In this document: piece by piece, positions 23,111 to 24,255 of the stretch
How the letters are laid out: the number at the start of each line of letters is the position of its first letter
Numbering within the stretch: the first letter of the stretch is position 1
Assembly (NCBI RefSeq): GCF_055900595.2
Contig: NZ_CM148325.1
Direction: 5' to 3' (one strand)
Length of the DNA stretch: 64,000 nt
Position numbers and translations under genes: made by a program
The notes under the pieces: generated by a model
The model's input: the letters and a program-made list of their open reading frames with translations, nothing else
Databases searched by the model: none
What the model was told of the DNA's origin: nothing

Positions 23111-24255
23111 TTAGCGGCCGCCCATAATGGCAATATAATCCTGCGTCCAGCGACTGTAGGGAACAAACTTGCCCCCTTCTGCTATAGGCGTTTTCCAGAA
23201 GGCGATTTTATCGAAATAGTTAAAACCGTTTGTTTCACAACCTTTTTCGCCTAATAACGGACTGGCTTTACACCCTTCCGGCACTACCGGTAACGAGCCA
23301 AACCAGGCCGCCACATCGCCCTGCACTTTTGGCGTTAATGACCAGTTCATCCATTTGTAGGCGCAAACCGGATGTTTCGCTTCGCTATGTAGCATGGTGG
23401 TGTCAGCCCAACCGGTAACGCCCTCCTTCGGGAAAACGGTAGCGACAGGCTGGCCTTCGGCTTTCAGGGCGTTGGCCTGGTAGGGCCATGCACTGGAAGC
23501 AACCACACCCTCGTTTTTGAAATCGCTCATTTGCACGGTAGTGTCATGCCAGTAGCGATGGATCAAACTATGTTGATCGCGCAGCACTTTCAGCACCGCC
23601 TGGTACTGTTCTTCGGTGAGTTGATACGGATCGCTGATGCCCAACTGCGGCTGAGTGGCTTTAACGAACAACGCAGCATCCGCAATATAAATAGGGCCAT
23701 CATAAGCCTGAACGCGGCCTTTATTGCTCTTACCGTCCGGCAGATTCTGCGCAACAAAAACCACTTGCCAGCTATCCGGCGGCGTCGGGAAGGTTTTCGT
23801 GTTGTACATCAGCAGGTTCGGCCCCATTGGTAAGGAGTGCCGTAAACTTTGCCGCCAACGTTAAACCAGTCGCCTTTAACCACACGCGGATCGAGCGCTT
23901 TCCAGTTGGGAATCAATGCGGTACTAATCGGCTGCACGCGTTTACCCATAATCAGGCGCAGCGAGGCATCGCCGGATGCTGTAACCAGATCGTAACCCCC
24001 TTTGGTCATCAGACTGACCATTTCATCGGACGTCGCGGCGGTTTTTACATTCACCGCGCAACCTGTCTCTTTTTCGAATTGCGTTACCCAGTCGTATTGT
24101 TTATCAGTTTGTCCGCGTTCGATGTATCCCGGCCAGGCGATAATATCCAGTCGCCCTTCCGGTTTATCTAAATTGGTAGGTGGTTCGGCGGCGTGAGCGG
24201 TCATTATTGTCATGGTGAGCGCACACAGGCTGCTGCGGGCAAATGTCTTGCTCAT
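23111..24255 (-). pseudogene. ydcS: ydcS periplasmic binding protein gene, split by an apparent 1-bp deletion
   Basis: Track ORFs 23809..24255 and 23111..23827 together cover the 381-aa K-12 YdcS. Frame breaks at ...YGTPYQWG | PNLLMYN, where tggggccgaacc reads as one C short. Confidence 0.7.

Follow-up and report, generated by a model that had tools for sequence, protein, structure and literature searches.

The window analyzed here, a stretch of 64,000 nucleotides, carries the gene order ydcR-ydcS-ydcT-ydcU-ydcV-patD, and this order is the same in Escherichia coli K-12 and in annotated relatives (Table 1). The four genes that follow ydcS (18908-23093) have the lengths of their K-12 counterparts, contain no internal stops, and are annotated as intact by PGAP in the carriers of the deletion described below. 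For ydcR, Pfam GntR and Aminotran_1_2 match the gene in three fetched loci (L006-L008), and annotation and synteny agree with this assignment. Next to ydcR lies a degraded hicAB toxin-antitoxin locus without hicA, in which hicB survives only as a 5′-truncated remnant that PGAP labels "incomplete, missing N-terminus". The same degraded state is found in strain 2013C-4282, whereas both hicA and hicB are intact in K-12. Strain 2013C-4282 also possesses a CatB-related O-acetyltransferase gene between patD and yncL (L002 11728-12537) that the window does not have.

Table 1. Coordinates of features in the window
Feature	Position	Strand	Description
ydcR	24500-25906	-	GntR/MocR-type regulator-aminotransferase gene, 468 aa, intact, upstream of ydcS
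ydcS pseudogene, 5′ fragment	23809-24255	-	148 codons: signal peptide and YdcS residues 1-145, then out-of-frame R-T-C
ydcS mutation site	23822-23825	-	coding strand reads G4 (plus strand C4), whereas all intact ydcS genes examined have G5; shift after Gly145
UGAUG overlap	23807-23811	-	premature TGA overlapping a downstream-frame ATG that encodes Met150 in intact YdcS; read from CTGCTGATGTAC
ydcS pseudogene, 3′ fragment	23111-23827	-	open frame, YdcS residues 145-381
ydcT	22080-23093	-	337 aa, intact
ydcU	21138-22079	-	313 aa, intact
ydcV	20354-21148	-	264 aa, intact
patD	18908-20332	-	474 aa, intact
hicAB remnant	25985-26221	-	degraded toxin-antitoxin locus
Second small pseudogene	about 8103-8458	-	"lipoprotein, frameshifted" (PGAP label of the counterpart in Z0117EC0005 and 100117)
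Type VI secretion effector island	410-7887	-	vgrG (664 aa), DcrB-like gene, 1,543-aa Rhs protein, small downstream ORFs

The ydcS gene is split into two open reading frames. In the ORF list, the upstream frame encodes 148 amino acids and ends in ...GTPYQWGRTC*, and the downstream frame encodes 238 amino acids that begin with MGPNLLMYNTKTF.... When positions 23111-24255 are translated in one frame, the product is YdcS-like up to residue 145 (...GTPYQWG), continues with Arg-Thr-Cys and a stop, and then runs into many further stops. Alignment with the intact ydcS genes of 2013C-4282 and K-12 MG1655 revealed a single indel, the loss of one G from a run of five at about coding nucleotides 430-434 (CAATGGGGGCCGAAC in the intact gene, CAATGGGGCCGAAC in the window). 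The intact TGGGGGCC is shortened to TGGGGCC, and the frame then reads WGRTC-stop instead of WGPNLL, with the premature TGA at 23809-23811. Adding the base back yields an ORF of 381 codons with no stops and five amino acid differences from K-12 YdcS. The ATG that opens the downstream ORF (23825-23827) arises from the reading-frame register (caATGggg), and no purine-rich Shine-Dalgarno motif was found upstream of it in GGCACTCCTTACCA. A scan of the untranslated 3′ part for promoter and terminator consensus sequences gave no promoter-like and two weak terminator-like sites, which equals the expectation from shuffled sequence.

The repaired protein scores 811 bits against the YdcS equivalog of NCBIfam (NF041888; curated cut-off, 725 bits) over profile positions 1-379 of 379, a match that lies far above chance. 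As encoded, the 5′ fragment covers profile positions 1-144 (266.8 bits, E = 2.6e-79), and the 3′ fragment covers positions 143-379 (531.7 bits, E = 8.2e-160). Since each fragment stays below the cut-off, the locus represents a ydcS pseudogene and not an intact member of the family; the one unbroken frame that the equivalog requires, comprising the signal peptide and both lobes, is interrupted after codon 145. The preliminary description had already taken the two frames for the halves of ydcS, separated by a 1-bp frameshift in a G/C run with the break at QWG|PNLL, and had suggested that an extra C would restore the 381-codon frame. Its coordinates are exact, the break coincides with the single gap in the alignment, and the base in question is the C that is absent from the plus-strand run at 23822-23825.

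A solved structure of the E. coli protein (PDB code 6NLP) matches residues 23-381 of repaired YdcS with an E value of 1.6e-252. K-12 YdcS (b1440; NF041888) has the same length of 381 residues as the repaired protein and the same operon context. In contrast to K-12, the frame in the window is broken at codon 146, which leaves only the 148-residue N-terminal fragment exportable. At the nucleotide level, ydcS of the window is about 97% identical to the K-12 gene, because the typed carriers of the deletion belong to cryptic clade I (see below). PotF and PotD of E. coli belong to the same binding-protein superfamily as YdcS and show recognizable homology (PotF structures match at E values of about 1e-16), which is the basis of the predicted putrescine or spermidine substrate of YdcS. 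However, YdcS is a separate paralogue: the repaired protein reaches 61.3 bits (E = 8e-17) against PotF (cut-off, 636) and 45.7 bits against PotD (cut-off, 582), both far below the equivalog cut-offs.

Distribution of the deletion in public genomes

We compared positions 23000-24400 with 5,426 complete RefSeq E. coli genomes by megablast, which found the gene in 5,413 of them. Deletion carriers were recognized by 100% identity over exactly 1,401 bp, and eight of the 5,426 genomes showed such a match; the 32 matches next in rank all extend over 1,402 bp, the length without the deletion. With a 71-mer that has the site at its centre, the same eight carriers were retrieved together with four relatives that align with a one-base gap. 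The carriers comprise Z0117EC0005 from a Korean dog, AST85 from a Japanese human, and six human isolates with GEMS-style names (100117, 100248, E200086, E400634, E500002, and E600003), two of which are recorded as Gambian. Their records come from three depositors, and all carriers read CCTTACCAATGGGGCCGAACC at the shortened G run. In both carrier records that we inspected, PGAP labels ydcS as "frameshifted" (NBY12_RS11240 in NZ_CP098223.1 and ACU5T3_RS12670 in NZ_CM128596.1), and the window is identical to these two genes over 1,401 bp and has the same deletion.

Isolates 100117, 200086, 400634, 500002, and 600003 are covered by a GEMS genome announcement (PMC13064198). They were collected in 2007-2008, were typed as cryptic clade I, ST485, OND:H45, and were assembled with Unicycler as hybrids of Illumina HiSeq and ONT reads at 257-489x (PMC13064198). 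The announcement gives Gambia, Mali, Kenya, India, and Bangladesh as their origins, so that the four GEMS-style carriers not recorded as Gambian come from the last four countries (PMC13064198).

Outside the complete genomes, the exact 148-residue fragment is found on 260 public contigs and the exact 238-residue fragment on 376 (NCBI, ENA, and Logan assemblies), and exact fragments also occur in 362 index blocks. The three fetched loci L006-L008 all carry G4 and read CAATGGGGCCGAAC. The repaired allele, which is marked by a lineage-specific Ser111, has no occurrence among about 15 billion proteins, and 99 contigs carry an intact neighbour allele with Asn111. To control for an artefact of the tract itself, a K-12-type 71-mer minus one G was searched; it matched 4,524 genomes, none of them at 100%.

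We conclude that the ydcS frameshift is almost certainly a real deletion of 1 bp (G5 to G4), inherited clonally, by which the gene has become a pseudogene in one E. coli clone; the carriers for which typing has been published are cryptic clade I, ST485, OND:H45. The deletion is considered real because it recurs in independent assemblies of one clone, and the base call of the window itself rests on agreement with these relatives. The deletion is thus reproducible and restricted to a lineage, and the tract does not show it in general. The frameshift is also already known, in that it is flagged in public annotation and affects a known gene of a known clone. The pattern resembles the lineage-specific gene decay of host-associated E. 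coli and Shigella, in that a clone has become fixed for one inactivating lesion and the genes around it remain intact. N-terminal YdcS fragments are recorded from Shigella sonnei as well (P0003 and P0005), one of 58 residues on 152 contigs and another of 82 residues; they may stem from a separate lesion in ydcS of that lineage or from contigs that end within the gene.

Error, recoding, and phase variation at the G run

The change sits in a short G/C run, the classic setting in which 454, Ion Torrent, and Nanopore sequencing produces false indels, and a homopolymer sequencing or assembly error in the window genome would mean that its ydcS is really intact. Several observations make such an error very improbable. 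The run is only 4-5 bases long, a length that is not error-prone in hybrid assemblies corrected with Illumina reads. The identical deletion is present in all eight complete genomes from the three depositors, five of which are documented as Illumina-corrected hybrids at a coverage of at least 257x, and the contigs with the 148-residue fragment include Logan assemblies of public sequencing runs. Furthermore, the deletion was found only in genomes that match the clone, with the next 32 matches at intact length and an exact G4 in none of the 4,524 genomes with K-12-type flanks, and the intact version of the allele is absent from the protein collection. We therefore rejected a sequencing error on the grounds of recurrence over independent assemblies and platforms and of the lack of any such loss in the 4,524 other genomes. 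The preliminary description had offered real inactivation and a homopolymer error as the two options and had advised a comparison with closely related strains. This comparison decides for real inactivation, which is favoured by the eight genomes, the 260 contigs, the lack of an intact copy, and the control. Resequencing that restores the C, which had been named as the outcome that would refute a frameshift, is in effect contradicted by the independent assemblies.

The deletion could also be real and the site recoded, so that a programmed -1 ribosomal frameshift (Gly-tRNA moving from GGC to GGG) or transcriptional slippage restores full-length YdcS. Read directly from the sequence, a -1 slip at U GGG GCC GA would regenerate the wild-type WGPN exactly, and the next zero-frame codon is CGA, a rare codon in E. 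coli. However, U GGG GCC GAA does not fit the X XXY YYZ pattern of a slippery heptamer, and the 106 nt from the site onward have a minimum free energy of -29.8 kcal/mol compared with a shuffle mean of -29.6 (z = -0.06), which argues against a stimulatory structure. The split arrangement is confined to one recent clone and is not conserved in divergent lineages, as would be expected of a programmed site, and transcriptional slippage is known from tracts far longer than G4. Recoding is thus highly unlikely, and programmed frameshifting was rejected because the site lacks a heptamer, the z value is close to zero, and the arrangement is not conserved outside the clone.

Least credible of all is phase variation of ydcS, with the run acting as a contingency tract for on-off switching in the lineage. 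Mononucleotide G/C tracts are the usual substrate of slipped-strand phase variation, and the run is of this type. However, frequent switching requires a tract of roughly 7-8 bases, more than the 4-5 bases present here, all eight complete genomes and the sampled loci L006-L008 are in the OFF state (G4), and phase variation was rejected because the ON form (G5) of the allele was not found in the collection of about 15 billion proteins.

Position of the window in the clone and age of the mutation

The window represents a further genome of the clone. None of the eight RefSeq carriers aligns with it in one piece over window positions 12000-36000. The window is without the IS200/IS605 copy after 34817 and the IS150 copy after 41569 that are both present in Z0117EC0005 and 100117, and it is therefore assigned to a less IS-laden branch of the clone. 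In these two carriers, the IS200/IS605 copy lies between rimL and ydcH and the IS150 copy between trg and hokB; in 100117, an IS3-family element additionally splits ydcZ.

Over roughly 46 kb, the window differs from each of Z0117EC0005 and 100117 by about 16 substitutions and a 6-bp indel, whereas the two carriers differ from each other by about 6 substitutions in the same stretch. Because the branch of the window splits from that of Z0117EC0005 and 100117 yet shares the deletion with them, the deletion is older than the split. A Logan contig (SRR34555640) is identical to the window over 6.4 kb.

The type VI effector island differs among these genomes. In rhs, the window and Z0117EC0005 are distinguished by a 6-bp indel at 4958-4963, and the annotation of Z0117EC0005 has an orphan Rhs-toxin fragment at the corresponding place in the island. 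In 100117, IS1 interrupts the island, and only a truncated vgrG is present. At the second small pseudogene, the sequence of the window shows no difference from that of Z0117EC0005.

The nearest genomes with an intact G5 run (2017-02-2CC, RMDEC465, 2013C-4282, WL297, and others) are 98.0-98.4% identical to the window over 24 kb, which places them clearly outside the clone. Across the whole region, identity is only about 96.5-97.4% with mainstream E. coli and 98.0-98.4% with a handful of genomes, which fits an origin in cryptic clade I.

Repaired ydcS has a pN/pS of 0.095 in comparison with 2013C-4282 and of 0.053 in comparison with K-12. The values for ydcR, ydcT, ydcU, ydcV, and patD (0.02-0.10) are indistinguishable from these, and ydcS contains no second lesion. 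Long-term decay is not visible, as the pN/pS of ydcS does not differ from that of its neighbours. Given that there is neither a second lesion nor a rise in pN/pS, the mutation is probably recent on an evolutionary scale, yet it appears to predate the sampled diversification of the clone.

The window keeps ydcU Y115 (codon 115, 21737) and ydcR A350 (codon 350, 24858), both shared with K-12 and 2013C-4282. Derived states are ydcU Y115D in Z0117EC0005 and 100117, ydcR A350G in Z0117EC0005, and one synonymous change in ydcU. These changes may reflect early relaxed selection after the loss of ydcS, although three changes are too few to test this.

Probable consequences for YdcS function

Translation from the normal start produces the signal peptide and YdcS residues 1-145, followed by Arg-Thr-Cys and a stop, and the remaining 236 residues lie in another frame. 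The 148-residue product would be without about 60% of the two-lobed PotD/PotF-type binding protein. A protein made from the 3′ fragment would in turn have no signal peptide. Because of these two defects, no functional periplasmic YdcS is expected, and the intact YdcTUV permease would be left without its cognate substrate-delivery component. Loss of the binding protein, and hence of uptake by YdcSTUV, is the likely outcome.

The premature TGA overlaps an ATG of the downstream frame (UGAUG), and the arrangement is a possible termination-reinitiation site. As a matter of speculation, a restart at this site could soften polarity on ydcTUV-patD. Such a restart, or spontaneous -1 slippage on GGC at the G run, may occur at a low level, but neither would plausibly supply exported full-length protein in useful amounts.

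In the literature, YdcSTUV figures as a putative importer of putrescine (PMC8674398). YdcS has also been described as a periplasmic polymerase of short-chain PHB, and its deletion reduces outer-membrane cPHB by about 30% (PMC3709699). Natural plasmid transformation was 6.7-fold lower in a ydcS mutant (PMC6135910). The role of YdcS is poorly established: for its substrate there is no more than a prediction, and its parts in PHB synthesis and in DNA uptake have each been claimed by single groups. These YdcS-dependent activities should be lost or reduced in carriers of the deletion. All of the reported functions are non-essential, which fits an unremarkable loss.

The loss of YdcS could alternatively have been selected as a pathoadaptive change in the globally spread, eatA-plasmid-carrying ST485 clone, for example through polyamine uptake, envelope cPHB, or DNA uptake in the gut. 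The ydcTUV-patD genes might then be kept because another binding protein uses them or because a restart at UGAUG prevents polarity. We consider this improbable, as no evidence for an adaptive loss was found beyond fixation itself.

For annotation, the clonally inherited deletion means that ydcS of the window is to be labelled as a frameshifted pseudogene, and neither as two genes nor as an assembly error. Beyond this correction, the importance of the finding is small. The deletion cleanly marks the ST485 clone of cryptic clade I. This clone is predicted to be without the contributions of YdcS, which would comprise a putative import of putrescine, the synthesis of cPHB in the periplasm, and a modest part of natural plasmid transformation. 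ST485 would thereby offer a natural ydcS knock-out in which these poorly established functions can be studied.
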